DNA of 64,000 bases from Candidatus Nanohaloarchaea archaeon (GCA_013343275.1 CP046106.1:544001-608000); one strand, 5' to 3'; positions 6,381 to 56,626 are shown, counted from the first letter of the stretch. Made by a program: numbers and translations. The notes: a model not told the origin generated them from the sequence alone.

Positions 6381-6467
6381 CCTGTAAACGAAGATTAAGC
6401 ATTCAGTATTTTAAACCGTCCACCTTTAAACCGCAGACAGAAACAGGTAAAACACAGTAAAGATCTT

Positions 6468-12296: not shown

Positions 12297-12306
12297 GATT
12301 ATTAAG
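12297..12306 (+). promoter_or_regulatory. Putative TATA box for the leaderless thrS leader transcript
   Basis: ATTAAG begins 31 nt before the uORF ATG at 12332; identical spacing in the glyS leader. Confidence 0.5.
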
Positions 12307-12331
12307 AGCTGAGCCCAGAAACTTTTCTACA

Positions 12332-12446
12332 ATGAAGGGTGGACGTTTTACCTTCGGCCCACATGTTTCGCAACCAAGCCAGCTTTAACTTTAGCTGTCA
12401 AAACCTTTTCTATAAAATTAGAAACTTTGCAGGAGATTCTCAATGA
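12332..12446 (+). promoter_or_regulatory. thrS leader: uORF MKGGRF-T-FGPHVSQPSQL* (12332-12388) with putative +1 frameshift cassette; +1 frame ends in TGA overlapping the thrS ATG
   Basis: ATG AAG GGT GGA CGT TTT ACC; +1 frame 12348-12446 stop-free until ...TCT CAA TGA (ATGA overlap). Confidence 0.75.
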
Positions 12447-14368
12447 GTATTGAAGTAGAACTACCAGACGGCTCGACACTAGAAGTAGACGAAAACGCAA
12501 CAGTAGAAGACGTGGCCTACGAGATAGGTACAGGCCTCGGAGACGACACAGTCGCAGGAAAGATCAACGGCGAACTAGTCGCAAAAGAGGAAAAAGTCAG
12601 CGACGGCGACGAAATAGAGATCGTAACTCCGCAGAGCGACGAATACATCGATGTGCTCAGACACTCCGCCGCACACGTATTCGCACAGGCCCTGAAAAGA
12701 ATCTACGGCGACGAAGTAAAACTTACAATCGGGCCGTGGACAGATGAAGGATTCTACTACGATATCAAAGGAGTTGATCTGGATCAGGAGGACTTCGAGG
12801 AAATAGAGGAAGAGATGCAAAATATAGTAGATGAGGATCTCGATATCGAACGTGAAATGCTGCCCCGAGAAGAAGCAGAGGAGTTCTTCGAAGACAATAG
12901 ATTCAAGCAGGAGATTCTTGAAGAGGAGGCATCTGAAGGAGAGAAGGTCTCATTCTACAAACAGGGAGAGTTCAAGGATTTGTGTAAAGGCCCTCACGTA
13001 GAATCTACTGGCGAAGTCGAGGCCTTCAAGCTGCTGGAGATCGCAGGCGCCTACTGGCGTGGAAACGAGGAAAACGAGATGCTGACACGTGTCTACGGAA
13101 CTGCCTTCCCTTCAGAGGAAGAACTTGAGGATTTCCTGGAGAAGAAGAAAGAGGCCGAGAAACGTGATCACCGGAGGATCGGCGAGGAAATGGACTTGTT
13201 CTCCGTACCTGAGCACGCTCCTGGCTGCCCTCACTATCACCGTGCCGGCATGAAGATCAGGAGAGAGCTGGAAGAATATATAAGAACGAAGAACAAGGAG
13301 CTGGGCTACGAGGAAGTCTGGACTCCAGAGCTGAACAAGGCAGATCTCTGGAAGAAGACAGGCCACTACGAGGCCTTCAAAGAGGACGGCGAAATGTTTG
13401 CATGGGAGCAGGACGACACGGAGTATGGCCTGAAGCCTATGAACTGTGCGAACCACTCCCACATCTTCGACTCCGGAAAGAGAAGTTACAAGGAGCTTCC
13501 TATCAAGCTTTCCGAGTTCGGGACAGTTTACAGGAACGAACAGTCCGGAGAGCTTTCAGGCCTTCTACGCGTTCGCGGCTTCACACAGGACGACGGCCAC
13601 GCATATATCCGGAAGGATCAGATTGAGGAGGAGATCAGGAAGCATCTCGAGATAATTATAGAGATGTACGACGAGTTCGGCTTCGACACACACTTTATAC
13701 TGGAGACAAAGCCGGAAAAGGCTCAGGGACCGGATGAGCTATGGGATGAGGCCGAAAGCTCTCTTAAGAACGCGTTGAACCAGACCGTAGACGACTTCGA
13801 GATCAAACCTGAGGAAGGTGCTTTCTACGGGCCGAAGATCGGTGTTGAAGTAGAGGACGCGATCGGACGTGAATGGCAGCTTGGAACCGTTCAGCTCGAC
13901 TTCGTGATCCCACGTAACTACGGTCTGAAGTACGTAGGAGAGGACAACGAGGAGCACTACCCAGTAATGATCCACAGGGCAATCCTTGGATCTATCGAAC
14001 GGTTCATGGGGGTTATGATCGAGCACTTCGCGGGCGACTTCCCGACATGGCTGGCGCCTGAACAGGTCAGAATCCTGCCAGTAACCGACGACAATATGGA
14101 GTACGCGGAGAAGATCAAGGAAGAACTCTCGGATTTCAGGGTAGAGATCGAGGACCGCAGCTGGACGGTAGGCAAGAAGATTCAGGCCGCACACGACGAC
14201 AACGTACCTTACATGCTGATCCTGGGCGACGACGAGGAAGAAGCAGGAGAAATATCGGTTAGAGACCGTGAGGAAAACGAGGATCGCGGGTTCTCAGTTG
14301 AAGAATTCAGAGAAGCCCTCAGAGAAGAAGTTGAGGAGAAAAAACTGGAGCCCGACTTCCTCCAGTAA
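12443..14368 (+). CDS. thrS: Threonine--tRNA ligase (bacterial-type architecture: TGS, editing, catalytic, anticodon-binding)
   Basis: HSAAH, DLCKGPHV, RDHR, KPMNC, RVRGFTQDD, GAFYGPK, IHRAILGS. Confidence 0.97.
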   Translation: MSIEVELPDGSTLEVDENATVEDVAYEIGTGLGDDTVAGKINGELVAKEEKVSDGDEIEIVTPQSDEYIDVLRHSAAHVFAQALKRIYGDEVKLTIGPWTDEGFYYDIKGVDLDQEDFEEIEEEMQNIVDEDLDIEREMLPREEAEEFFEDNRFKQEILEEEASEGEKVSFYKQGEFKDLCKGPHVESTGEVEAFKLLEIAGAYWRGNEENEMLTRVYGTAFPSEEELEDFLEKKKEAEKRDHRRIGEEMDLFSVPEHAPGCPHYHRAGMKIRRELEEYIRTKNKELGYEEVWTPELNKADLWKKTGHYEAFKEDGEMFAWEQDDTEYGLKPMNCANHSHIFDSGKRSYKELPIKLSEFGTVYRNEQSGELSGLLRVRGFTQDDGHAYIRKDQIEEEIRKHLEIIIEMYDEFGFDTHFILETKPEKAQGPDELWDEAESSLKNALNQTVDDFEIKPEEGAFYGPKIGVEVEDAIGREWQLGTVQLDFVIPRNYGLKYVGEDNEEHYPVMIHRAILGSIERFMGVMIEHFAGDFPTWLAPEQVRILPVTDDNMEYAEKIKEELSDFRVEIEDRSWTVGKKIQAAHDDNVPYMLILGDDEEEAGEISVRDREENEDRGFSVEEFREALREEVEEKKLEPDFLQ

Positions 14369-30246: not shown

Positions 30247-31896
30247 TTATTCTTTCAGGTCATGTACCTTCTCTATATTGATTTCCAGGCCTGCAGCTGG
30301 ATATTTCAGGTCCCAGTTCTGCATTACCTTCTCTGAGAACTCGCCGATTATTCCTACCCTCTTGTCCTTGAAGTAGATTGCAGCCGACCGCGATTCCTTG
30401 AAGCAGCCGCGGTATTTTTCCTGTAAGTTGAATTCCAGGCCTAGGTCTCTTTCAAGAGTCTGCAGTACTGCTCTTGCGTCTGTATAGTCTTTTTCGTTGC
30501 CTGTTGCTATGTAGGCTAGTTTTTTCTGGTTAGAGGCTCCTGTACTGGAGCTATCGAGCTGTACTACATCTGCTACTTCGAAGAATTCCTGTGGGTAGCT
30601 GTGGTGTCTGTTGTCGTGCAGTGTCTGGAATAGTGAGGGTAGCAGCCAGTTTCTGACTACTTCCTGTTCTCTTCCTGCCGCGTTCGCTACCTCTGCTACA
30701 TCGTCTTCTTCAACCTCCATCCTGTCGAAGATTTTCTCTTTGCTGGACAGGTAGTACGTGTTGGTCTCAAGTGCGCCAGCTCCAGCCATTACATCTCTGA
30801 TCCGATCCTCGAAGTCCTGAAGTGGTTTAATAGAAGCCATCTGATCGACATCCGGCACCTCAGGCTCTATATTGTCGTATCTGTGCGCTATGACTACATC
30901 TTCGATCAGATCATACTGATGCATGAGGTCCGTTCGATAACAGGGTATCTCTACCTTGATCTTGCCGTTATTCTTTTTCCGGATGCCGTACTTCATCATT
31001 TTCAAGCGCTCAACTACTTCTTCCATGGATAGATCGAGACCTGAAATCTCCCTGAAGTATTCAACATCCAGAGTCATCTCATCCGGTGAGAGATCAGGAA
31101 ACTCCTGTCCATCAACCATTACAGACTCTACCTGACCGCCTCTCTCTGCGAGAGCTGTGGAGAGAATATTCAGTGCCTTCAGTACCGTTTCACGATCTTT
31201 ACCCGTAACGTCGATAAATATATCCTGTGTCCCTGTATCAACCTCAGTCAACTGGTTGTTAATAATCGGCGGGAAACTGAGAACCTTCCCTTCACTATCT
31301 TCAATTATAGGATACTTTTCTTCATTCTCCAGAATCCAGGCATACTTCTGACCTTTCTCATGTTCATCTAGGATCTCTCCAAGCTGCATATGCCTATCGT
31401 ACTCCAGTGGCTTGAACGAGACCTTTTCCGGCTCTACAGCTTTGTAAGTAAATGGTTCCTCGACTGTAGACAGATCATGAAGGCCTATCGCCAGTTTATC
31501 TCTCCTGCGGCCCATAGTCTCGTGCATCTTCTCCTGTAGCTGTATCAAACCGTTAATTTTCTTCTCAGATAGGTCAAGTCCGCGGACAACAGCTCCTCCG
31601 ATGAAAGGCCTTACATCTTCGACCGATTCATCAACTTCTACCTCGACAAAGCCGTCATCTACGCTGTAATCTTTCCTACCTGTTTCTATGTCGAAGAATC
31701 CTCTGTATGCTCTGGCAAGGCCTTCTACTGAAAGCAGGTCGGGCCTGTTCGGATATGTTTCGACTTCGCAGACGTTGCCGTCGATGCGGTGCCAGTGCGC
31801 TCCAAGCATCGAACCCTCTTCAATCATTCTTTCGTTTTCGATCTCTTCTCCTACAAGTTCGTCGAACTCTCTCTTATCAACTTCAATATTTGGCAT
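30247..31896 (-). CDS. pheT: Phenylalanine--tRNA ligase beta subunit
   Basis: NRPDLLSVEGLARA, LQEK-x-H, SFPPIIN, YR-x-D-x-x-H-x-x-DLIEDV; TAATG overlap with pheS. Confidence 0.95.
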   Translation of the reverse strand: MPNIEVDKREFDELVGEEIENERMIEEGSMLGAHWHRIDGNVCEVETYPNRPDLLSVEGLARAYRGFFDIETGRKDYSVDDGFVEVEVDESVEDVRPFIGGAVVRGLDLSEKKINGLIQLQEKMHETMGRRRDKLAIGLHDLSTVEEPFTYKAVEPEKVSFKPLEYDRHMQLGEILDEHEKGQKYAWILENEEKYPIIEDSEGKVLSFPPIINNQLTEVDTGTQDIFIDVTGKDRETVLKALNILSTALAERGGQVESVMVDGQEFPDLSPDEMTLDVEYFREISGLDLSMEEVVERLKMMKYGIRKKNNGKIKVEIPCYRTDLMHQYDLIEDVVIAHRYDNIEPEVPDVDQMASIKPLQDFEDRIRDVMAGAGALETNTYYLSSKEKIFDRMEVEEDDVAEVANAAGREQEVVRNWLLPSLFQTLHDNRHHSYPQEFFEVADVVQLDSSSTGASNQKKLAYIATGNEKDYTDARAVLQTLERDLGLEFNLQEKYRGCFKESRSAAIYFKDKRVGIIGEFSEKVMQNWDLKYPAAGLEINIEKVHDLKE

Positions 31897-33299
31897 TATC
31901 GATCTCCTCCATTGCTTGGCCTCCATTTAGGAGTTTCCTCCAAGATTTCAATATCATTCCTATAAAGCTCTCGGATGTCCTGTATCTCTGCGGCTTTCAT
32001 AGCCACCCTTCCAAGACCTAGTCCCCATGCGAGAACAGTGGCCTCGAATCCTAGCATCGGTTTAACGACTTCCGGACGGAACAGGCCTGCTCCTCCGAGG
32101 CCCATCCATTCCTCTTCTTCGTCGTCCCATACCTGTACTTCTGTGCTCATCTCGGTGTAAGGATAGTAGGAAGGAATGAGGCGGAACTCTTCGTAACCCA
32201 TTTTCTCGAAGAACTCACTGAGGTATCCTTTCAGATGTGTGTAGTTGAGGTCCTCGCCGACTACGATTCCATCTAGCTGTATAAACCCGGGAAGATGGGT
32301 GCGGTCAACTGTTTCGTTCCTGAAATTGCGGCCAATTACAAACAGTTTCTTCGGTAGTTCCTCCTCATTGATATCGATTTCATGCAGTCTTCTTGCGCTG
32401 ACAGCTGTAGTATGTGTTCTAAGCACGTTTCTCGAGGCCTCATCCTCGCTCCAGTCATAGCCCCATCCTCTGCTTCCGGTTGTCCAGCCATCTTCATGCG
32501 TCTCCTTAACGTGCTGCACTTTTTCGCCGTACTCGGAGAGATCGGTCTCTGCCGGAGTCTCCATAAAGAATGTATCGTGCAGGTCACGGGCCGGATGGTC
32601 CTGAGCAGTGTAAAGTGCATCGAAGTTCAGGAAGCTTGGAACCACGAAGTCTCCGGTCATCTGCTGGAATCCCATCTCGACGAATTTTTCTCTCGCAAAT
32701 CCGAGAATTTCCTTGTAGAAATGCTTTTTACCTATCCGTGGCGTCTGGACCCGAGCCTCGACATTAAAGTCTTCTTCAACCTCTTCTACATCCAGATCTT
32801 CGCCTTTCTCAGTAAGAACAAGTATTCTCGTTACCTCAGTATCTATATCGACAAGGCCTCTGTCCTCGTCTTTCTGCATGAAATCTTTCTCATTTAGCCG
32901 AGTCTTGAGTTTGTCTTCTTCCAGTGCTTCTTTCCCTTTGTCTGTAAGTGCTACTGATCCTCCTTCTATCTCTATCCAGTCCTTCTGCCGGGCCTTCCCC
33001 AGCGCTACGTCCAGGTTGAGGTCCTGAAGATTGGCGAGGGATTTGTCTCCTTCGTCTACTCTTTCAATCAGTTTGTGTTCTGGAGATCCTTTTGCTGCTA
33101 CTTCTTTCCCTGTCTCTGTCAGGTATCGGGTTATTTCTTCCTCTTCTTCTACTTCTATCAGGCCTTTTTCCTGCAGTTCCATTGCTGAGCGGTTGACCAT
33201 TGACTGGTCGAATCCTTTCTTCTCCAACTCCTCTACTGTCTGCTTACCCTGTTTTTTCAGTTGTTCAAGTATATCTATGGCCTGAGTTGAGAGTCTCAC
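31896..33299 (-). CDS. pheS: Phenylalanine--tRNA ligase alpha subunit (archaeal type)
   Basis: NFDAL-x-x-x-QDHPARD-x-x-DTF, LRTHTT, FRNE, YYPYTE, FRPE, AWGLG. Confidence 0.96.
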   Translation of the reverse strand: MRLSTQAIDILEQLKKQGKQTVEELEKKGFDQSMVNRSAMELQEKGLIEVEEEEEITRYLTETGKEVAAKGSPEHKLIERVDEGDKSLANLQDLNLDVALGKARQKDWIEIEGGSVALTDKGKEALEEDKLKTRLNEKDFMQKDEDRGLVDIDTEVTRILVLTEKGEDLDVEEVEEDFNVEARVQTPRIGKKHFYKEILGFAREKFVEMGFQQMTGDFVVPSFLNFDALYTAQDHPARDLHDTFFMETPAETDLSEYGEKVQHVKETHEDGWTTGSRGWGYDWSEDEASRNVLRTHTTAVSARRLHEIDINEEELPKKLFVIGRNFRNETVDRTHLPGFIQLDGIVVGEDLNYTHLKGYLSEFFEKMGYEEFRLIPSYYPYTEMSTEVQVWDDEEEEWMGLGGAGLFRPEVVKPMLGFEATVLAWGLGLGRVAMKAAEIQDIRELYRNDIEILEETPKWRPSNGGDR

Positions 33300-33338
33300 A
33301 ACGCGGTTTTACTCAACGGAATCTTAAATAGATAATTT

Positions 33339-34091
33339 CTAGGCCGATTCCAGAACCGCTCCCAGAACTATAAACAGCACACCTGTCAGGAAGAGTTTTG
33401 TCAGGTCTTTCCAGGTGTCAAGGTCGAAATGTTCTCTGTACATCGCTGCCGACACCAGGCTTCCGCAGATACCTGCCACTACGAAACCTGCCATTTCAAG
33501 GGTTGCATGTGGAACATAGGCTACTGGTGATGGAGTCTTACCTGAACCCATAATCAGCTCTGCTATACCTTTGAGCTCTGAGACAAGCTGGGCGATGAAA
33601 ACTCCGAGAACAGAGGCATTCCAGGTAAGTATGAAAGCTCCTGCAGAACCTATAATCGCTGATACAGCGAATATCGAAAGATACAGCACCAGGTTATTAG
33701 ATAATACTACAAAGAAAATATCAGGTATTACCGCATTTCCTGCGAGGCCTAGCTGGGCGGCCTGTTCGCTGAAAACAGCAGTCTGCATAGCAAAGTCCTT
33801 GGTGAAGAACAGGCCTAGCGAGAGGAATGCTACGAACTCTCCCAGGAATAATGACCCATAAAACTCTATTTCATCGCTGTGAGGCCTTCCCCTATCTTCA
33901 TCATCAAGGAAGACCCTGGTCAATGGATATACGAGAGGTATAGATGCAAAAACTACAGAAAGAACAGATGTCTGGCCCGGAAAAACTATTTTAGCTACAG
34001 CAAATCCTGTTAAGCCAGATATAAGGCCTAGCAGGGCTACGAATAAAAGACTTCCCTGTTTCTCCTCCCTCAGAATAAGTTCCGGCAGCAT
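33339..34091 (-). CDS. SpoIIM/DUF95-like membrane protein
   Basis: NN-x-x-L, WNA-x-x-x-G, PH-x-x-x-E, A-x-x-ES terminus. Confidence 0.7.
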   Translation of the reverse strand: MLPELILREEKQGSLLFVALLGLISGLTGFAVAKIVFPGQTSVLSVVFASIPLVYPLTRVFLDDEDRGRPHSDEIEFYGSLFLGEFVAFLSLGLFFTKDFAMQTAVFSEQAAQLGLAGNAVIPDIFFVVLSNNLVLYLSIFAVSAIIGSAGAFILTWNASVLGVFIAQLVSELKGIAELIMGSGKTPSPVAYVPHATLEMAGFVVAGICGSLVSAAMYREHFDLDTWKDLTKLFLTGVLFIVLGAVLESA

Positions 34092-34134
34092 AAAGAAGAA
34101 ATGATGGTAGGTGGTTTAAACCGGTTTTCCAGAA

Positions 34135-35289
34135 CTATCTCTGGAGTTCTAGATCGATGTTTCTGTCCCACATTTCCTGGGCCAGTTCGCCGTCGTACAT
34201 CATCTGCTGCACCAGCTCATCTGCATTCTCCTTTCTCTCCTGGTGCTCCTGAAGGAACTCGTTCAACTCTTCTACCAGTATTTCCTTGATCTCGCCAGTC
34301 ATCATCTCGCCGGAGGAGTACTTCTCAGCGATCTCCCGGATTCTCTCATCGTCCTCCATCAAAAGGTTTCTCAACCACTGGAAAGAGGTATCAACTGCCA
34401 GATCAGCGCCTTCCTCACGGTGTTCTTCCAGAGTATCGCCTCCACCTGAGTAAGCATGCTTCTTGACCTTCTCCTCGACCTCTTCAGGGCTGTCATCCAG
34501 CATGATCGCGGTCTTCGGCTTCGAGGAACTCATCTTCCCCTCAGGCCCTGTCAACGCCGGGATAAACTTGGAGTGGATCGCCGCTGTCTTCTTGTGGCCG
34601 AACTTCTCGGCAATATCCCTCTGGATCCTCCAGTACGGATCCTGATCGATCGCAGCCGGGATAACGCACCGCTTGTCCTCGAAGAATGTCGGAATATTCT
34701 GTATAGCAGGCCAGAAATTCATTCCAATATTGGTCGAGCCTTCAAAGCCGAAAACGCTCTGGGCCTGTGAATTATTGATTTTTTCGGCAATCTTCACGAT
34801 TCCATCATACATGTGACCCATGTATTCTCTGTTTCGGAAGATGAATGTCTTGTCAGGATCAAAGCCAACAGCTGCGATCTCCCTGATATTATCCTCTGCG
34901 TACTTATCGATTTCCTCATCTGTTATATCGCGGTCCCAGTACTTCTCGTCGTCAGTAACCTGTATATACACGTTGACATCGAACTTCTCCTGAATCCACT
35001 TCGTGAAGTAGAAACTGATAATATGGCCTATATGCATCTTGCCGCTAGGCCCGATACCGGTATACAGGAAGAAGCCGTCTTCTTCCTCGTACTCATCAAG
35101 CGCCTTGTCAAGGCCTCTGTGGGAGTAGATGAAGTCTCTCTTCATGTAGAGGTTCTCATCTCCAGCCAGATCGAAGAATCTCTCCTTCAACTCCTCGTCG
35201 ATCTCCTCGGTTCCGAATTTATCTATTAGTCTATCGTAGTCTACCTGACCCTCCACATCGAAAGGCGTCACATCAAAATCCTCTGCCAT
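34135..35289 (-). CDS. trpS: Tryptophan--tRNA ligase (archaeal type)
   Basis: VTPF, DY-x-x-LI-x-x-FG, YTG-x-GPS-x-x-MHIGH, DQDPY, KMSSS; AGGAGG SD. Confidence 0.96.
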   Translation of the reverse strand: MAEDFDVTPFDVEGQVDYDRLIDKFGTEEIDEELKERFFDLAGDENLYMKRDFIYSHRGLDKALDEYEEEDGFFLYTGIGPSGKMHIGHIISFYFTKWIQEKFDVNVYIQVTDDEKYWDRDITDEEIDKYAEDNIREIAAVGFDPDKTFIFRNREYMGHMYDGIVKIAEKINNSQAQSVFGFEGSTNIGMNFWPAIQNIPTFFEDKRCVIPAAIDQDPYWRIQRDIAEKFGHKKTAAIHSKFIPALTGPEGKMSSSKPKTAIMLDDSPEEVEEKVKKHAYSGGGDTLEEHREEGADLAVDTSFQWLRNLLMEDDERIREIAEKYSSGEMMTGEIKEILVEELNEFLQEHQERKENADELVQQMMYDGELAQEMWDRNIDLELQR

Positions 35290-35305
35290 AGTTTTTATCG
35301 TCCTC

Positions 35306-36358
35306 CTAGTTAAGTTCTGATCGAAGAAAGCTTTTCAAGATTTCACAGTATGCTTCCAGGCTTTCAACCTCCACATACTCGTCTTCAGCGTGAAGATTGT
35401 AGCCTTCCGGGCCGAAACAGACCGCAGGAACACCTTTCTCGGTGAAGAACCTCATGTCGCTCGCAAAGTTCTCCCTCCTGAAATCAACCGTTTCTCCAGA
35501 AACTTCCTCAGCTGAAGTTTTCAGGGCCTGAGCTCCAGAATTTTCCTCCGAAGTCTCCAGCATCGGGGCCTCCGCCAGGACTTCGTACTCCAGGCCTCCC
35601 ATTTCTTCTAGATCTCTCAGAACTTCCTCCTTCGGGTACTGGTTTGAGTACCGGATATCTACCTGTAGAGAGGCCTTGTCAGGTATCTGGTTGACAGGTC
35701 CTTCAGCGGAGATATTGCCCAGGTTGATCGTGGTTCCAAACTCGGCCTCATGGTTAAATCCTGATCTGAACTCCATGTACTTTTTGAGGAGTTTTTCGGC
35801 CGCGTTCTCGCCTCTATCAGGTTTGGACGCGTGAGCGTTCTCCCCTGAGGCCTTTAACTCGAGCTGGAGAACCCCTTTCTGCTCTGTGACTATTGATGGG
35901 AAATGACCTGAGTCATCGGGCTCCGCTGAAATTACCAGTTCCGGTTCAATCCCTGTTTCTTCAGTTACGTGGCCTGTGCCGTTAAATCCTCCTCTTTCCT
36001 CGTCAGATGTAATTAGGATTCCTAGATTCTCGGCCTCAACTTTCTGGGCAGCTTCGATGATACAGGCAATCCCTGACTTCATGTCGGCTGTTCCTCGGCC
36101 GTAAATTCGGCCGTTACGCCTTTCTGGTCGGAAGAGCGAGTCTTTTGCATCTACCACATCGATATGGCCGTGGAGGAGAATTTGCGGTTCACCCCTCGTA
36201 GCCAGTAGAGATTTTTCTCCTTCCTCCTCGAATCTCTGTATATCAAAGTCTTCTGGCAGTTCTTTCTCAACCAGTTGAAGGCCTTTCTCTATTTCTCCTA
36301 GGTTTCCTTCTACCGTCCTGAGTTTTACCAGTTCTTCAGTCATTTCCTCTATATTCAT
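35306..36358 (-). CDS. M20 family metallo-hydrolase (ArgE/DapE-like)
   Basis: HGHIDVV, GRGTADMK, DEE-x-GG, HAS-x-P, H-x-x-DEYV; ATGA overlap with the upstream GNAT gene. Confidence 0.88.
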   Translation of the reverse strand: MNIEEMTEELVKLRTVEGNLGEIEKGLQLVEKELPEDFDIQRFEEEGEKSLLATRGEPQILLHGHIDVVDAKDSLFRPERRNGRIYGRGTADMKSGIACIIEAAQKVEAENLGILITSDEERGGFNGTGHVTEETGIEPELVISAEPDDSGHFPSIVTEQKGVLQLELKASGENAHASKPDRGENAAEKLLKKYMEFRSGFNHEAEFGTTINLGNISAEGPVNQIPDKASLQVDIRYSNQYPKEEVLRDLEEMGGLEYEVLAEAPMLETSEENSGAQALKTSAEEVSGETVDFRRENFASDMRFFTEKGVPAVCFGPEGYNLHAEDEYVEVESLEAYCEILKSFLRSELN

Positions 36359-37129
36359 GCCATTCTCTCGCCTCCTTCAGTGAATTCGTAGTCGGACTTC
36401 CTGGCTGCTCTTCCCAGGCTGTGTGCGGCCTCCGATTCGCTGACCTCTCCTGCTACAACCAGGGCATCGCCATCCTCGAAGGACATGTTGAGGCCTTCTT
36501 CTCCATACATAAAGTCCTGGAAATCATCGTTCTCCGGTATGCTGGAGTACATTCCTCCATCGTAGATGTCTGCGTAGGCCTCTCTCATTACCGGGCCTTC
36601 CATTTCTTTGTCGACGTCGATCGCTTCTCCCAGATCCTGTACTTCTTCCAGCATCTCCTCTTCTTTTCCTGGCTGTGGGTATACTTCGAAGCAGTTGTCT
36701 GCGCAGGCGTACATGTTCGGGTTCTGCGTTCTATAGCCGAAAAGCTCGTCTCCCTCCGCCTCCTCCACCACTCCTCTGCTGAGTAGTGTACTGCCGACGC
36801 ATCTTCCCTGCAGGCTATCGTCAACCGCAAGACCTACCTCGTAGACAGTGTCGTCCATCCGGGATAGGCCTGAGAATGCTACGTACTCTCCGTCCTCGTC
36901 TTTTGCTGTGACGAGTGTAGGTACTCTGAGGTGGTCTCTTGCGTCCTGATCGGTTGGGACACCTTCCTTGGAGAAAGCGTTCTGCGCGACGTCAACAAGC
37001 TGTTGTTCGGCCTCGGAGTTGGCCTCTAGAAATTCTTCTGGATTTTGATGTACCTCTATCTCAAGGCTTCCAAAAACGTCCACCCTGTTCTCGGGCTTCC
37101 GATGTCGAATAGTTTTCAGTCTGTTCCAT
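36355..37129 (-). CDS. GNAT-fold acyltransferase-like protein, proposed to be made by +1 frameshift joining 37129-37073 to the ORF called from GTG 37083
   Basis: LAV-x-x-x-LQGR-x-VGS acetyl-CoA motif; the upstream ATG frame MEQTENYSTSEAREQGGRF-W-KP* carries the TTT-TGG cassette and is acidic, whereas the +1-frame sequence upstream of the GTG is basic and has no ATG. Confidence 0.65.
37061..37129 (-). promoter_or_regulatory. Trp-sensing uORF B: MEQTENYSTSEAREQGGRF-W-KP*
   Basis: CAG GGT GGA CGT TTT TGG AAG CCT TGA; a +1 slip UUU->UUU enters the GNAT frame. Confidence 0.75.
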
Positions 37130-37332
37130 AAGTCAAATCACGTAAGCAAAGATTGCCAGAAAAGCTTTAAATAGCTTACAGAGCTTCTACCTGGTTTTTA
37201 GAGATAGCTGAAGCTGTAGAGATAAGTTTAACCTGGAGTAATACTGGCAAAGCTAAAATAAAACGTATGTGGAGTTAAGGCCATGAGAAGTTCTTGATTG
37301 AGGAGATCTGTAGATAGCTGTGGCTCAGAGAA

Positions 37333-37377
37333 TTATTTCTGTGCAGGAGGCCAAAAGCATCCACCTTTCTGAGCCAT
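37333..37377 (-). promoter_or_regulatory. Trp-sensing uORF A: MAQKGGCF-W-PPAQK*
   Basis: ATG GCT CAG AAA GGT GGA TGC TTT TGG; TTTTAA about 29 nt upstream; flanked by the 9-bp inverted repeat TGGCTCAGA/TCTGAGCCA. Confidence 0.7.
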
Positions 37378-39360: not shown

Positions 39361-39411
39361 GGCTGCTGTATTACGATGTAATACTTCCAGGTTTTTAACT
39401 TTTCCAAGCAG

Positions 39412-39420
39412 CATTTAAGA
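39412..39420 (+). promoter_or_regulatory. Putative TATA box for the leaderless glyS leader transcript
   Basis: TTTAAG begins 31 nt before the uORF ATG at 39445. Confidence 0.5.
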
Positions 39421-39444
39421 TTCCGGTCAAAACTTCTCCATACA

Positions 39445-39559
39445 ATGAAAGGTGGATGTTTTGGACTGTCCTCAGAGGCAGTCACACGGCAAAGTATTCA
39501 ATAATCTAAAACCTTCTAGTTCTGACTATAAAAATTTCCACGAGAGTGTTTCTGCATGA
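39445..39559 (+). promoter_or_regulatory. glyS leader: uORF MKGGCF-G-LSSEAVTRQSIQ* (39445-39504) with putative +1 frameshift cassette; +1 frame ends in TGA overlapping the glyS ATG
   Basis: ATG AAA GGT GGA TGT TTT GGA; +1 frame 39461-39559 stop-free until ...TCT GCA TGA. Confidence 0.75.
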
Positions 39560-41268
39560 GCAAGTCACTTACAGAAAAACTTTCTGAGCTGGCGAAGAGA
39601 AGAGGATTCTTCTTCCAGTCTTCAGAGGCCTACGGTGGTGTCGCAGGTTTCCAGACCTTCGGCCCCGAAGGCGCAGAACTCAAGAGAAACATCGAAAACA
39701 GCTGGAGAGAAACATTCTCCGACAGCCTAGGCCATCGAGAGATCGAGGCCCCGACCATTATGCCGGAGCCGGTTTTCGAGGCCTCAGGGCATCTAGACAC
39801 GTTCGACGACATGATAATAGAATGCCCGGAATGCGGAACATCAAGCAGAGCCGACCATCTCGTGGAAGATAACACAGATATCGAAGAAGCAGAAAGCTTC
39901 TCACACGAGCAGGTAGAGGCCTTGATCAAGGAACACAACCTTGAATGCCCAAGCTGCGGAGAAGACCTCAGTAACGTAGCAGTAGAGGACTTCAACCTGA
40001 TGTTCGAGACAAGCATCGGCCCAGGATCAGGCCAGACAGGATACCTCAGGCCGGAAACCGCACAGGGAATATTCGTAGAGTTCCCACGGCTGAAGGAATA
40101 CGCAAGAAACCAGCTACCGTTCGGCATAACACAGATTGGTAAAGCATACAGAAACGAAATTTCACCGAGGAAAGGTCTCGTCAGAGTCCGTGAACTGACT
40201 CAGGCCGAGCTTGAGCACTTCATCGATCCGGAAGAAGACGAACCACGGCTTGAGAAAGTTGAAGATGTCGAGCTGAAGCTTTACAGCCGTGAACAACAGA
40301 ATGCTGAAGACGGTGAACCTCAGTTCATGACCGTCAAGGAAGCAGTTGAAGAAGAGGTTGTCGAATCTGACTGGATTGCCTATTATCTCGGTATCGCGAA
40401 GCAGTGGTATGAGGAGATCGGAGTCGATATGGAGCGCTTCCGGTTCCGCCAGCATCAAAACGATGAACTCTCCCACTACGCAAGCGACTGCTGGGACGCA
40501 GAGAGCCAGGTCGACGGCGACTGGATCGAGATCACCGGTTTCGCGTACAGAGGCTGCTACGATCTGAAGAAGCACGACCAGTACAGCCGAGAAGACTACA
40601 AGATCTTCAAAGAGTACGACGAACCAAAGACCGTAGAGAAGAATACAGTCAGCCCGGACATGGGTTATCTAGGCCCTGAGTTCGGTGATAAGGCAGGCAA
40701 GATTGCAGAGAAGCTTGAGGAGATCGCAGAGAACGAACCTGAAGCCTTTGAAGCAGACAAGGTATTTGTCGAAGTGGACGGCGAGGAATACTCCGTTCCC
40801 GCTGATAAATGCAACTTCAGCGTCGAAGAAGTCACTGAGAACGGCGAGCATATTCTCCCTCACGTTGTCGAGCCTTCATTCGGTATCGACAGGATGGTTT
40901 ACACAGTTCTGGCTCATGCCTACGATGAGGACGAGGTCGACGATGAGGAGAGAACTGTTATGCGGTTCAACGAAGAGGTTGCTCCGACAGAGGTCGCTGT
41001 CTTCCCTCTAATGGATAAAGAAGGCCTTGGCGAGAAAGCACAGGAAGTAGCGGACAAGCTGCGTGAAGAAGGTTTCTCCGTCAAGTACGATGATACCGGA
41101 AATATCGGTAAGCGTTACAGAAGGCAGGACGAAGTCGGCACACCTGTCTGCGTAACAATCGATTATGAGACACTTGAAGATGAGCCTGAGACCGTAACTG
41201 TCAGGGATCGTGACTCGACGGATCAGGAACGTGTGGAGATCTCAGATCTGGCCGATTACCTGGCCTGA
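39556..41268 (+). CDS. glyS: Glycine--tRNA ligase (alpha2, archaeal/eukaryote type)
   Basis: KRRGFF, RADHL, FNLMF, YLRPETAQGIF, RNEISPR, EPSFGIDR, IGKRYRRQDE. Confidence 0.97.
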   Translation: MSKSLTEKLSELAKRRGFFFQSSEAYGGVAGFQTFGPEGAELKRNIENSWRETFSDSLGHREIEAPTIMPEPVFEASGHLDTFDDMIIECPECGTSSRADHLVEDNTDIEEAESFSHEQVEALIKEHNLECPSCGEDLSNVAVEDFNLMFETSIGPGSGQTGYLRPETAQGIFVEFPRLKEYARNQLPFGITQIGKAYRNEISPRKGLVRVRELTQAELEHFIDPEEDEPRLEKVEDVELKLYSREQQNAEDGEPQFMTVKEAVEEEVVESDWIAYYLGIAKQWYEEIGVDMERFRFRQHQNDELSHYASDCWDAESQVDGDWIEITGFAYRGCYDLKKHDQYSREDYKIFKEYDEPKTVEKNTVSPDMGYLGPEFGDKAGKIAEKLEEIAENEPEAFEADKVFVEVDGEEYSVPADKCNFSVEEVTENGEHILPHVVEPSFGIDRMVYTVLAHAYDEDEVDDEERTVMRFNEEVAPTEVAVFPLMDKEGLGEKAQEVADKLREEGFSVKYDDTGNIGKRYRRQDEVGTPVCVTIDYETLEDEPETVTVRDRDSTDQERVEISDLADYLA

Positions 41269-56553: not shown

Positions 56554-56626
56554 GGCGGGGTAGTGTAGTGGACTATCATCGTACCCCGGGGCGGTACGGA
56601 CCCGCGTTCAAATCGCGGCCCTGCCA
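56554..56626 (+). tRNA. tRNA-Pro(GGG) with atypical C33
   Basis: GGCGGGG/CCCTGCC acceptor, GTACC-CCGGGGC-GGTAC anticodon arm, CCGCG-TTCAAAT-CGCGG T arm. Confidence 0.85.

Follow-up and report, generated by a model that had tools for sequence, protein, structure and literature searches.

The glyS gene of Candidatus Nanohaloarchaea archaeon, coding for glycyl-tRNA synthetase (GlyRS), is preceded by a leader with a short upstream open reading frame (uORF) in which a Gly codon directly follows a conserved core. The leader lies in a 64,000-nt stretch, CP046106.1:544001-608000 (the window), of a genome made up of one contig of 915,886 bp (CP046106.1, here G000). Coordinates without a genome prefix count from the first letter of the window. 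The parts of the leader and its gene are given below, where SD stands for Shine-Dalgarno sequence and the 0 frame is that of the uORF.

39413..39419 (+), TATA-like box ATTTAAG of the leader promoter, about 31 nt upstream of the uORF ATG
39445..39504 (+), 0-frame uORF encoding MKGGCFGLSSEAVTRQSIQ and then a stop; it starts MKGGCF and its stop is 52 nt before the glyS ATG
39448..39462 (+), conserved core AAAGGTGGATGTTTT of the leader
39450-39455 (+), SD-like AGGTGG within the core, followed by the spacer ATGT and the P-site codon TTT at 39460-39462
39463..39465 (+), sensor codon GGA (Gly), cognate to the downstream GlyRS
39464..39559 (+), +1 frame of 31 sense codons, ending in GCA and then a TGA that overlaps the glyS ATG (ATGA)
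39508..39533 (+), second conserved block, with AAAACC at 39508-39513, TTCTAG, and TATAAAA at 39527-39533
39542..39548 (+), imperfect SD GAGAGTG (AGTG), 7 nt upstream of the glyS ATG
39556..41268 (+), glyS (GlyRS, 570 amino acids), identified by Pfam

The TGA that ends the +1 frame occupies 39557-39559, one base past the start of the glyS ATG at 39556. The original prediction had set this leader beside a paralogous one in front of thrS and proposed that the two share their geometry.

12300..12446 (+), thrS leader, with a TATA-like box at 12300-12306 and a uORF at 12332-12388 (MKGGRF then ACC)
12335-12349 (+), core of the thrS leader
12350-12352 (+), sensor codon ACC
12351-12446 (+), +1 frame, with its TGA over the thrS ATG (12443)

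Within the window this comparison stood. The 22-mer common to both leaders (39441-39462 and 12328-12349, both on the plus strand) has no other window match at up to three mismatches, and none of 100 shuffles gave a match. The uORF ATG is 111 nt from the gene ATG in both cases (39445 to 39556 for glyS and 12332 to 12443 for thrS), the downstream genes code for GlyRS and ThrRS by Pfam, and the TATA-like box of the glyS leader (39413-39419) is where it was proposed relative to the ATG at 39445. The codon after TTT is GGA (39463-39465), and the +1 frame of the glyS leader is open from 39464 through 31 sense codons to the TGA over the gene start. The -1 frame is shut in the glyS leader at 39507-39509; that of the thrS leader shuts only at 12451-12453.

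The identical 111-nt geometry held within the genus (G000, G001 and G002) but not elsewhere, as GlyRS leaders range from 84 to 177 nt between the start of the motif and the gene ATG. Conservation of length is therefore not general, and the frame relation is what is kept. Non-Gly codons after TTT and early stops in the +1 frame, either of which would speak against the prediction, were absent from the 14 GlyRS leaders found: GGA follows TTT in all 14 and the first +1 stop lies between -13 and +10 nt from the GlyRS ATG in all 14. The sequence after the sensor codon is not conserved among leaders and has no conserved fold, and the +1 frame stays open to the gene. Selection on delivery of the ribosome rather than on a peptide product, as originally suggested, fits this pattern. 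The original observation was correct, and the glyS leader is one case of a phylum-wide leader system.

We surveyed 41 genomes, G000 and 40 relatives, and analyzed 108 unique copies of the core. The exact core is present in 98 copies in the 41 genomes versus 4 for a reversed-pattern control. Within the family, 23 of the 24 further genomes contain it, as do 4 of 16 from other families in the order. Across the phylum, 51 of 70 genomes encode it. They include 45 of 49 from the family of the window, the other families contributing 2 of 10, 3 of 8, 0 of 1, and 0 of 1. A scan of the genomes of all species matched at least 117 stretches. Recurring among the approximately 80 matches listed were Nanohaloarchaea, Nanohalobium, Nanosalina, Asbonarchaeaceae, and uncultured-archaeon records, while the named bacterial records among them formed no recurring group, as chance would give.

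The codon after the core most often encodes Trp (26 of the 108 copies), followed by Ser (16), Gly and Thr (14 each), Val and Tyr (10 each), and Ile (8). Cys (4), Phe (3), and His, Lys, and Leu (one each) are rarer. For the relatives' leaders with a Cys, Phe, Gly, Ser, Thr, Val, or Tyr codon, the first long downstream open reading frame (ORF) is the cognate synthetase in 56 of 61 cases by NCBIfam (Gly 13/13, Ser 14/14, Thr 12/12, Tyr 9/9, Val 5/7, Cys 2/3, and Phe 1/3); the other five are short or unassigned ORFs. The gene behind the relatives' GGA leaders is a glycine--tRNA ligase in 13 of 13. Two distant genomes without the exact core have related leaders in which the +1 stop is at the gene start: the thrS leader of G026 reads MKGGC, CTT, and then ACA, and a leader of G027 reads MQGGCF and then ACA. 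No leader was found for the thrS genes of G016 and G039. Chance similarity, or an unrelated small peptide gene upstream of the synthetases, has the shortness of the uORF and nothing else to recommend it. The 98 copies against 4 in the control, the 56 of 61 cognate genes, and the frame statistics below contradict such an explanation, to which we give next to no credence.

In the genome of the window the 15-nt core, AARGGTGGAYGNTTT, has seven exact copies. Five are before synthetase genes and are followed by the cognate codon each time (thrS ACC, glyS GGA, tyrS TAT, cysS TGT, and valS GTA), and one, with TGG, heads a minus-strand operon in the window that includes TrpRS. Inspection of the regions upstream of other synthetase genes in G000 added three variants: proS for the bacterial-type ProRS (..KGGYV then CCA), hisS (MKGDYD then CAT), and serS (MKGGRP then TCT). 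All three keep GGTG, 8 nt, and the cognate codon, and their +1 frames end in an ATGA overlap with the gene. The first +1 stops at all eight synthetase leaders of G000 are at +1 (six times), -5, and -10. By eye, no leader was seen before the G000 genes matching the IleRS, LeuRS, MetRS, Asp/AsnRS, ArgRS, GluRS, and AlaRS families, nor before those for the archaeal-type ProRS or PheRS alpha; LysRS was not located. A generic scan of G000 (GGTG, 8 nt, a codon, an in-frame ATG, and an open shifted frame ending at a gene start) gave 25 matches for the +1 frame versus 13 for a -1 control, and only the copies with an AARGGTG context are credible among them.

The remaining exact copy, at 6413-6427 (-) and followed by AAA (Lys), was rejected as a member of the family as it has no in-frame start and its +1 frame stops after two codons. 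It sits between a gene for a protein of 332 amino acids and a glycosyltransferase gene, the latter being downstream, and may be a relic or have another role.

Two synthetase loci of G000 have further features. The serS leader (G000:C1:670696-670866, L220) has 54 extra in-frame bases relative to G001 from the same genus, and these hold two small hairpins of the GAAAATC-N3-GATTTTC type. Similar hairpins are found elsewhere in the genome and may form a small repeat family. Despite the insertion the Ser codon is 8 nt past GGTG, the P-site codon is CCC, and the +1 frame is open to ATGA. Two ProRS genes lie about 0.6 kb apart (G000:C1:239952-243645, L218). The Pro leader is on the bacterial-type gene, which codes for 408 amino acids and lacks the insertion domain; the archaeal-type gene (492 amino acids) has no leader. 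In the window, ARAGORN predicts a tRNA-Pro (GGG) at 56554-56626 (+), which the Rfam tRNA model does not report at its gathering score.

We then asked which reading frames of the leader are kept. Walking upstream from the core, an ATG is reached before any stop in 104 of the 108 copies in the frame of the core, versus 5 of 108 for either of the other frames. In 46 of the 108 the ATG is directly adjacent to the core; otherwise it is about 1 to 15 codons upstream, with the core up to 48 nt away, always in frame. This pattern in the sequences indicates that the 0 frame is read.

The frame test used 62 leaders from 26 genomes in which the start of the downstream synthetase is fixed by its conserved N-terminus; the typical span from the start of the core to the gene ATG is 78-195 nt. 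In 57 of the 62 leaders, no more than 20 nt separate the gene ATG from the first +1 stop past the sensor codon. The same holds for 6 of 62 in the -1 frame and none in the 0 frame, with 15.5 expected from shuffled leaders. A Fisher test of 57/62 against 6/62 gives 5e-22, a value that is descriptive only as the genomes are kin. With the Trp leaders excluded, the +1 frame reaches the gene start in 56 of 57 leaders and the -1 frame in 6 of 57, and the single +1 miss has a doubtful TTG start. The commonest +1 endings are the ATGA overlap (18 leaders) and a stop 5 nt into the gene (9 leaders). For the 14 GlyRS leaders the +1 stop is at +1 nine times (ATGA), and otherwise at +10, -6, -6, -9, and -13. 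The base after a GTA sensor is C or T in 8 of 8 cases, so TAA and TAG are avoided in the +1 frame. Stops in the 0 frame are 45-156 nt upstream of the gene (median 66). An SD-like tetramer is found at -16 to -5 of the gene start in 44 of the 62 leaders versus 72 of 236 genes genome-wide.

RNA structure gave no comparable signal. Excess folding energy was not found in 58 leaders (mean z of -0.26 against mononucleotide shuffles, with 8.6% below -2), and RNAalifold, run on the final 66 nt plus 12 nt in 13 GlyRS and 14 SerRS leaders, returned no conserved pairs. Pairing of the AAAACC block with the core or the SD spacer, inspected by eye, is not general. Structure-based attenuation was rejected on the lack of both excess folding energy and conserved pairs. 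There was no Rfam match at E values up to 1 on 39380-39600, and over the whole window Rfam reported tRNAs only.

These results bear on whether the leader acts without being translated, either as a T-box-like RNA that binds tRNA through the triplet or as a protein operator over the transcription start. The conserved 15-mer is near the predicted transcription start in many leaders, and the match between triplet and amino acid is reminiscent of the T-box specifier. Neither kind of element requires a reading frame, yet the distance between ATG and core varies while staying in frame in 104 of 108 copies, and neither an Rfam match nor a conserved fold was found for the leader. For an operator it is also odd that the core can be as far as 48 nt from the uORF ATG. 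We therefore consider an untranslated element very improbable.

The core itself has the consensus R-GGUGG-A-YGN-UUU. A pattern left free at all synonymous sites (ATGAARGGNGGNYGNTTY) matched 47 places, with GGT-GGA in 46 and GGT-GGC in one, and with TTT in all 47 and TTC in none. Among the genes of G000, TTT accounts for 25% of Phe codons, GGT for 20% of Gly codons, and CGT for 13% of Arg codons. The codon before GGT can be AAG, AAA, CAG, ACA, GAA, AGG, CAA, GGA, GAG, or ACG, its last base always a purine, and the codon before TTT can be CGT, CGC, TGT, TGC, or CGG, so that Arg and Cys swap. This distribution indicates that the constraint on the core acts on nucleotides.

The 16S ribosomal RNA gene of G000 ends in ..GGATCACCTCC, and RGGUGG can pair with its UCACCU. 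On comparison of both sequences, the R and Y positions of the core are exactly those where either base keeps the 16S pairing. At real gene starts AGGT peaks 8 nt and GGTG 7 nt before the ATG. In the leaders GGTG is 5 nt before the P-site codon, two bases closer than the SD at real starts. The P-site codon differs in the variants (CTT in G026 and GTT, GAT, and CCC in proS, hisS, and serS, respectively) with GGTG, 8 nt, and the sensor codon kept; CCC_U is a known shift site.

The leader might instead act by stalling only, with a KGG[RC]F nascent peptide pausing the ribosome at the codon of a scarce tRNA and so changing folding, stability, or transcription while the frame is kept. A conserved peptide-like core followed by a cognate codon is what such a mechanism would offer, and is analogous to bacterial leader peptides. 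It leaves unexplained why the +1 frame alone is open to the gene start. Conservation at the nucleotide level, with Arg and Cys swapping, and the missing structure signal (mean z of -0.26 in 58 leaders and no RNAalifold pairs) also speak against stalling without a shift, and we regard it as improbable.

The Trp leaders add another line of evidence. Two are in the window, in tandem at the head of the TrpRS operon.

37061..37377 (-), the two tandem Trp leaders; the uORF of leader 1 is 37333-37377, MAQKGGCF then TGG
37061-37129 (-), uORF of leader 2, ..QGGRF then TGG; its +1 frame continues directly into the next gene
36355..37071 (-), GNAT-like 238-codon ORF that extends the +1 frame of leader 2
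35309-36358 (-), M20 ArgE/DapE-like deacylase
34138-35289 (-), TrpRS

One of the two Trp cores has CAG where AAR is usual. The GNAT-like ORF has its first ATG, GTG, or TTG past the shift site at codon 71, and the Pfam GNAT match starts at residue 49 (profile position 31). Similar fusions are encoded in the relatives. In G012 (L032, 1449-2548) two Trp leaders are nested such that a +1 shift in the first uORF brings the ribosome into frame with the second, where another +1 shift leads into an ORF for a HisC-like aminotransferase, whose family match starts at residue 28 and whose first start codon is at codon 119. The TrpD ORF of G035 continues the +1 frame, with 94 codons before the first start codon. 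As the family matches of the fused ORFs begin upstream of their first start codons, these ORFs need either a frameshift or initiation at the GTG inside the core.

Initiation at that GTG is part of another possible explanation, in which two uORFs overlap without any frameshift. The 0-frame uORF would carry the sensor, and a +1 uORF starting at the GTG of the core would stop at the gene start. With a ribosome stalled on the hungry codon, the second start would be covered, altering translation of the second uORF and, in turn, initiation at the gene. Every copy has a potential +1 start, GTG by the pattern itself and ATG in the proS and hisS variants, 39452-39559 is listed as a GTG ORF, and the open +1 frame stopping on the gene ATG is accounted for as well. 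The core GTG is internal, though, with as many as 16 codons between the uORF ATG and the core, and has no SD at a usable distance. With the Trp fusions (TrpD, aminotransferase, and GNAT-like), a stall on TGG would block the gene start when tryptophan is short, which is the wrong direction. The invariant TTT and the purine and pyrimidine positions that keep the 16S pairing are also left unexplained. Two overlapping uORFs are thus unlikely in our view, if still worth considering.

The relatives' Trp leaders precede genes for TrpRS, TrpB-like, TrpD, M20, aminotransferase, and GNAT-like proteins. A tblastn search of the genome of the window with the TrpB of a relative gave no match, and the GNAT-like, M20, and TrpRS operon may be a tryptophan salvage set. 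The operon (30250-37377 (-) with the genes at its 3' side) also has an ORF of 250 amino acids without a family. On the 3' side are PheRS alpha (31896-33299 (-)), with its own TATA box, a GTG start, and no leader, and next to it PheRS beta (30250-31926 (-)). In Trp leader 1 the +1 frame is open for 25 codons and then stops at 37275-37277 (-), far from leader 2. That stop lies 7 nt past the ATG of an 18-codon ORF, and the sequence after the first Trp uORF has a conserved stretch in common with G021.

An Ile leader in G000 (..TGGRF then ATT) precedes an unannotated gene, and those of the relatives precede pyridoxal phosphate-dependent (threonine-dehydratase-like) genes or an unannotated gene. The ORF after the Ile leaders of G000, G001, and G003 (376-393 amino acids) had no Pfam match at an E value of 1e-5, and that of G000 had no NCBIfam match at 1e-3. 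The uORFs of Ile and some Val leaders, in G000 (G000:C1:250694 (-), L093), G001, G003, G015, and G019, hold a second core-like motif, KGGRV followed by a Leu codon and then Gln, which suggests a combined branched-chain sensor.

TATA-like hexamers concentrate 27-38 nt upstream of the uORF ATGs in the 62 leaders and, genome-wide, peak 28-32 nt upstream of gene ATGs. The spacing at the uORF is thus the norm of the genome, pointing to uORF mRNAs that are leaderless or nearly so. The second conserved block of the glyS leader has counterparts in most others: in 52 of 58, an AAAACC-like block lies 33-72 nt upstream of the gene ATG, the thrS copy being at 12400-12417 (+). After the block, AAAACC(N)TTCTAG, comes a TATA-like box spaced from the synthetase ATG as promoters usually are. 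In 26 of the 58 synthetase leaders a TATA-like hexamer starts 26-40 nt upstream of the gene ATG, with a peak at 28-30. The block with its TATA-like box may be an internal leaderless promoter for the synthetase gene. Read on the opposite strand it resembles a transcription factor B recognition element (BRE) plus TATA, a possible antisense promoter, and it might also be a tether for reinitiation. Given a gene-proximal TATA at the usual distance, the synthetase may have its own leaderless promoter as well, with the leader adding a regulated share.

We consider it rather probable, from the sequences and by analogy, that the glyS leader is an amino acid sensor that works by a prfB-like programmed +1 frameshift at a hungry codon. 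Taken together, the architecture of the reading frames and the resemblance to prfB make a frameshift the most likely reading. Transcription from the promoter about 30 nt upstream would give a leaderless or near-leaderless mRNA, with the ribosome starting at the 5' AUG of the uORF. With ample Gly-tRNA, the ribosome would read GGA, keep to the 0 frame, and terminate at a distance from the gene that does not allow reinitiation. According to an excerpt of a study of Haloferax and E. coli, reinitiation in both is almost lost at a distance of approximately 20 nt (PMC10666635). The 0-frame stops are at least 45 nt upstream, beyond this coupling range, so unshifted ribosomes would not be expected to reinitiate.

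With scarce Gly-tRNA, the A site would stay empty and the ribosome would wait, its P site holding tRNA-Phe on UUU. Pairing of the SD-like RGGUGG with the 3' end of the 16S, 5 nt from the P-site codon in place of the usual 7, would push the ribosome +1. The slip would be that of tRNA-Phe on UUU_N, after which the ribosome would read the open +1 frame, terminate at ATGA, and reinitiate on glyS helped by the SD 7 nt upstream. A shortage of charged tRNA-Gly would in this way raise GlyRS output. Where the +1 frame is the gene itself, as in some Trp leaders, the shift would give the protein directly. For the wider set we lean, if only slightly, towards a Nanohaloarchaeota amino acid regulon that reuses a single module, in which a leaderless uORF carries an SD-like GGUGG, a slippery UUU, and a sensor codon that can be exchanged. 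A hungry sense codon would trigger a +1 shift either to the synthetase start or into the protein directly.

Several observations weigh against a frameshift sensor. The core always contains a start-like codon in the +1 frame, the GTG within GGTG or an ATG in the proS and hisS variants. With GTT or GAT as the P-site codon, re-pairing after a +1 slip is poor. Sensing would depend on one codon, which is not rare: GGA makes up 41% of Gly codons. The distal copies of tandem Trp arrays end their +1 frame 137-750 nt before the gene, and Ile leaders end theirs 44-143 nt before the next long ORF. With the gene-proximal TATA-like box found in 26 of 58 leaders, the gene may be expressed without the leader. 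Lastly, as the genomes are kin, counts of leaders overstate their independence.

The leader layout to set beside prfB is RGGUGG, 4 nt, UUU (CUU in G026), and the sensor codon; the SD spacing of E. coli prfB is 3 nt. An excerpt of a review (PMC5009743) gives CUU_U as the prfB shift site, with UUU_U used by a minority of species and an SD on the 5' side as stimulator, and describes a slowly decoded A-site codon that sets the shift rate, the output restoring the limiting factor. To that extent prfB and the leaders both have a short 0-frame sensor ORF with an internal SD-like sequence a few nucleotides before a NUU shift codon. The SD-like sequence of the leaders can pair with the 16S and its GGTG is 5 rather than 7 nt from the P-site codon, which is the shift-prone TTT in 47 of 47 places and CTT in G026, with GTT, GAT, and CCC as exceptions. 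Unlike prfB, where a stop codon senses a release factor, the A site of the leaders holds a sense codon that would sense aminoacyl-tRNA. The leaders are also archaeal, with one design reused with approximately 12 codons across a regulon. The +1 frame of most has no useful coding content and would serve just to bring the ribosome to a separate start. Some Trp leaders have a product in the +1 frame (GNAT-like, aminotransferase, and TrpD); synthetase leaders instead stop at the gene start.

Other known systems share single features with the leaders. The T-box of Gram-positive bacteria binds uncharged tRNA directly and is untranslated. Like it, the leaders use one design with a swappable triplet naming the amino acid, before synthetase, biosynthesis, and uptake genes, but their triplet is in a translated frame (in-frame upstream ATG in 104 of 108) and no T-box model matched. 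In the bacterial trp, his, and pheST attenuators a ribosome on a short leader ORF with codons for the regulated amino acid measures charged tRNA. The leaders also have an ORF with the cognate codon and synthetase and biosynthesis genes as targets. They differ in having one sensor codon at a fixed place rather than runs and no detectable terminator or antiterminator fold, and their output would be set by reading frame and not by transcription termination. With neither a stop codon sensor nor terminator folds, the leader is not a member of the prfB or the attenuator class. A frameshift in pheL is mentioned as incidental in the excerpt of the same review (PMC5009743).

In C. elegans zip-2, slowed elongation shifts ribosomes +1 from an overlapping ORF, as an excerpt of the report describes (PMC11831180). 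Both eukaryotic systems, antizyme and zip-2, use a frameshift from an upstream or overlapping ORF into a productive frame as the sensor. They are single genes that respond to a general or polyamine signal, with no codon specificity, no SD stimulator, and no regulon. The ends of the leaders have the features of termination-reinitiation coupling, with the +1 stop within 20 nt in 57 of 62 (18 of them ATGA) and an SD-like sequence in 44 of 62. The difference is that the upstream "gene" is reachable only after a change of frame. The leader would combine leader peptide sensing with prfB-like frameshifting in a new form.

In the literature searched, we found no description of such a leader, and no T-box or leader peptide attenuator described for archaea. 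An excerpt of a 2021 review (PMC8211752) knows of only one programmed -1 frameshift in a cellular archaeal gene (fucA1), and the natural role of hungry-codon frameshifting is called unclear in the excerpted review (PMC5009743). If our reading is true, the leaders would be the first regulated or programmed +1 frameshift in a cellular archaeal gene and the first cis-acting sensor of charged tRNA in archaea. They would give hungry-codon frameshifting a natural use and the T-box a natural counterpart based on recoding. The module is short, approximately 20 nt plus an open frame, and swappable, and would be attractive as an amino acid-specific translational switch.

From the sensor codon one could also predict which amino acid an unannotated downstream gene handles, and the codon would thus serve as an annotation key. 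Trp leaders would mark the GNAT-like protein, the M20 deacylase, and the aminotransferase as tryptophan-related, and Ile/Leu leaders would mark the unannotated protein of 393 amino acids. Little is known of how archaea match the expression of synthetase and amino acid genes to the supply of charged tRNA. The leader family, which spans a phylum of host-dependent archaea with small genomes, offers a testable answer.

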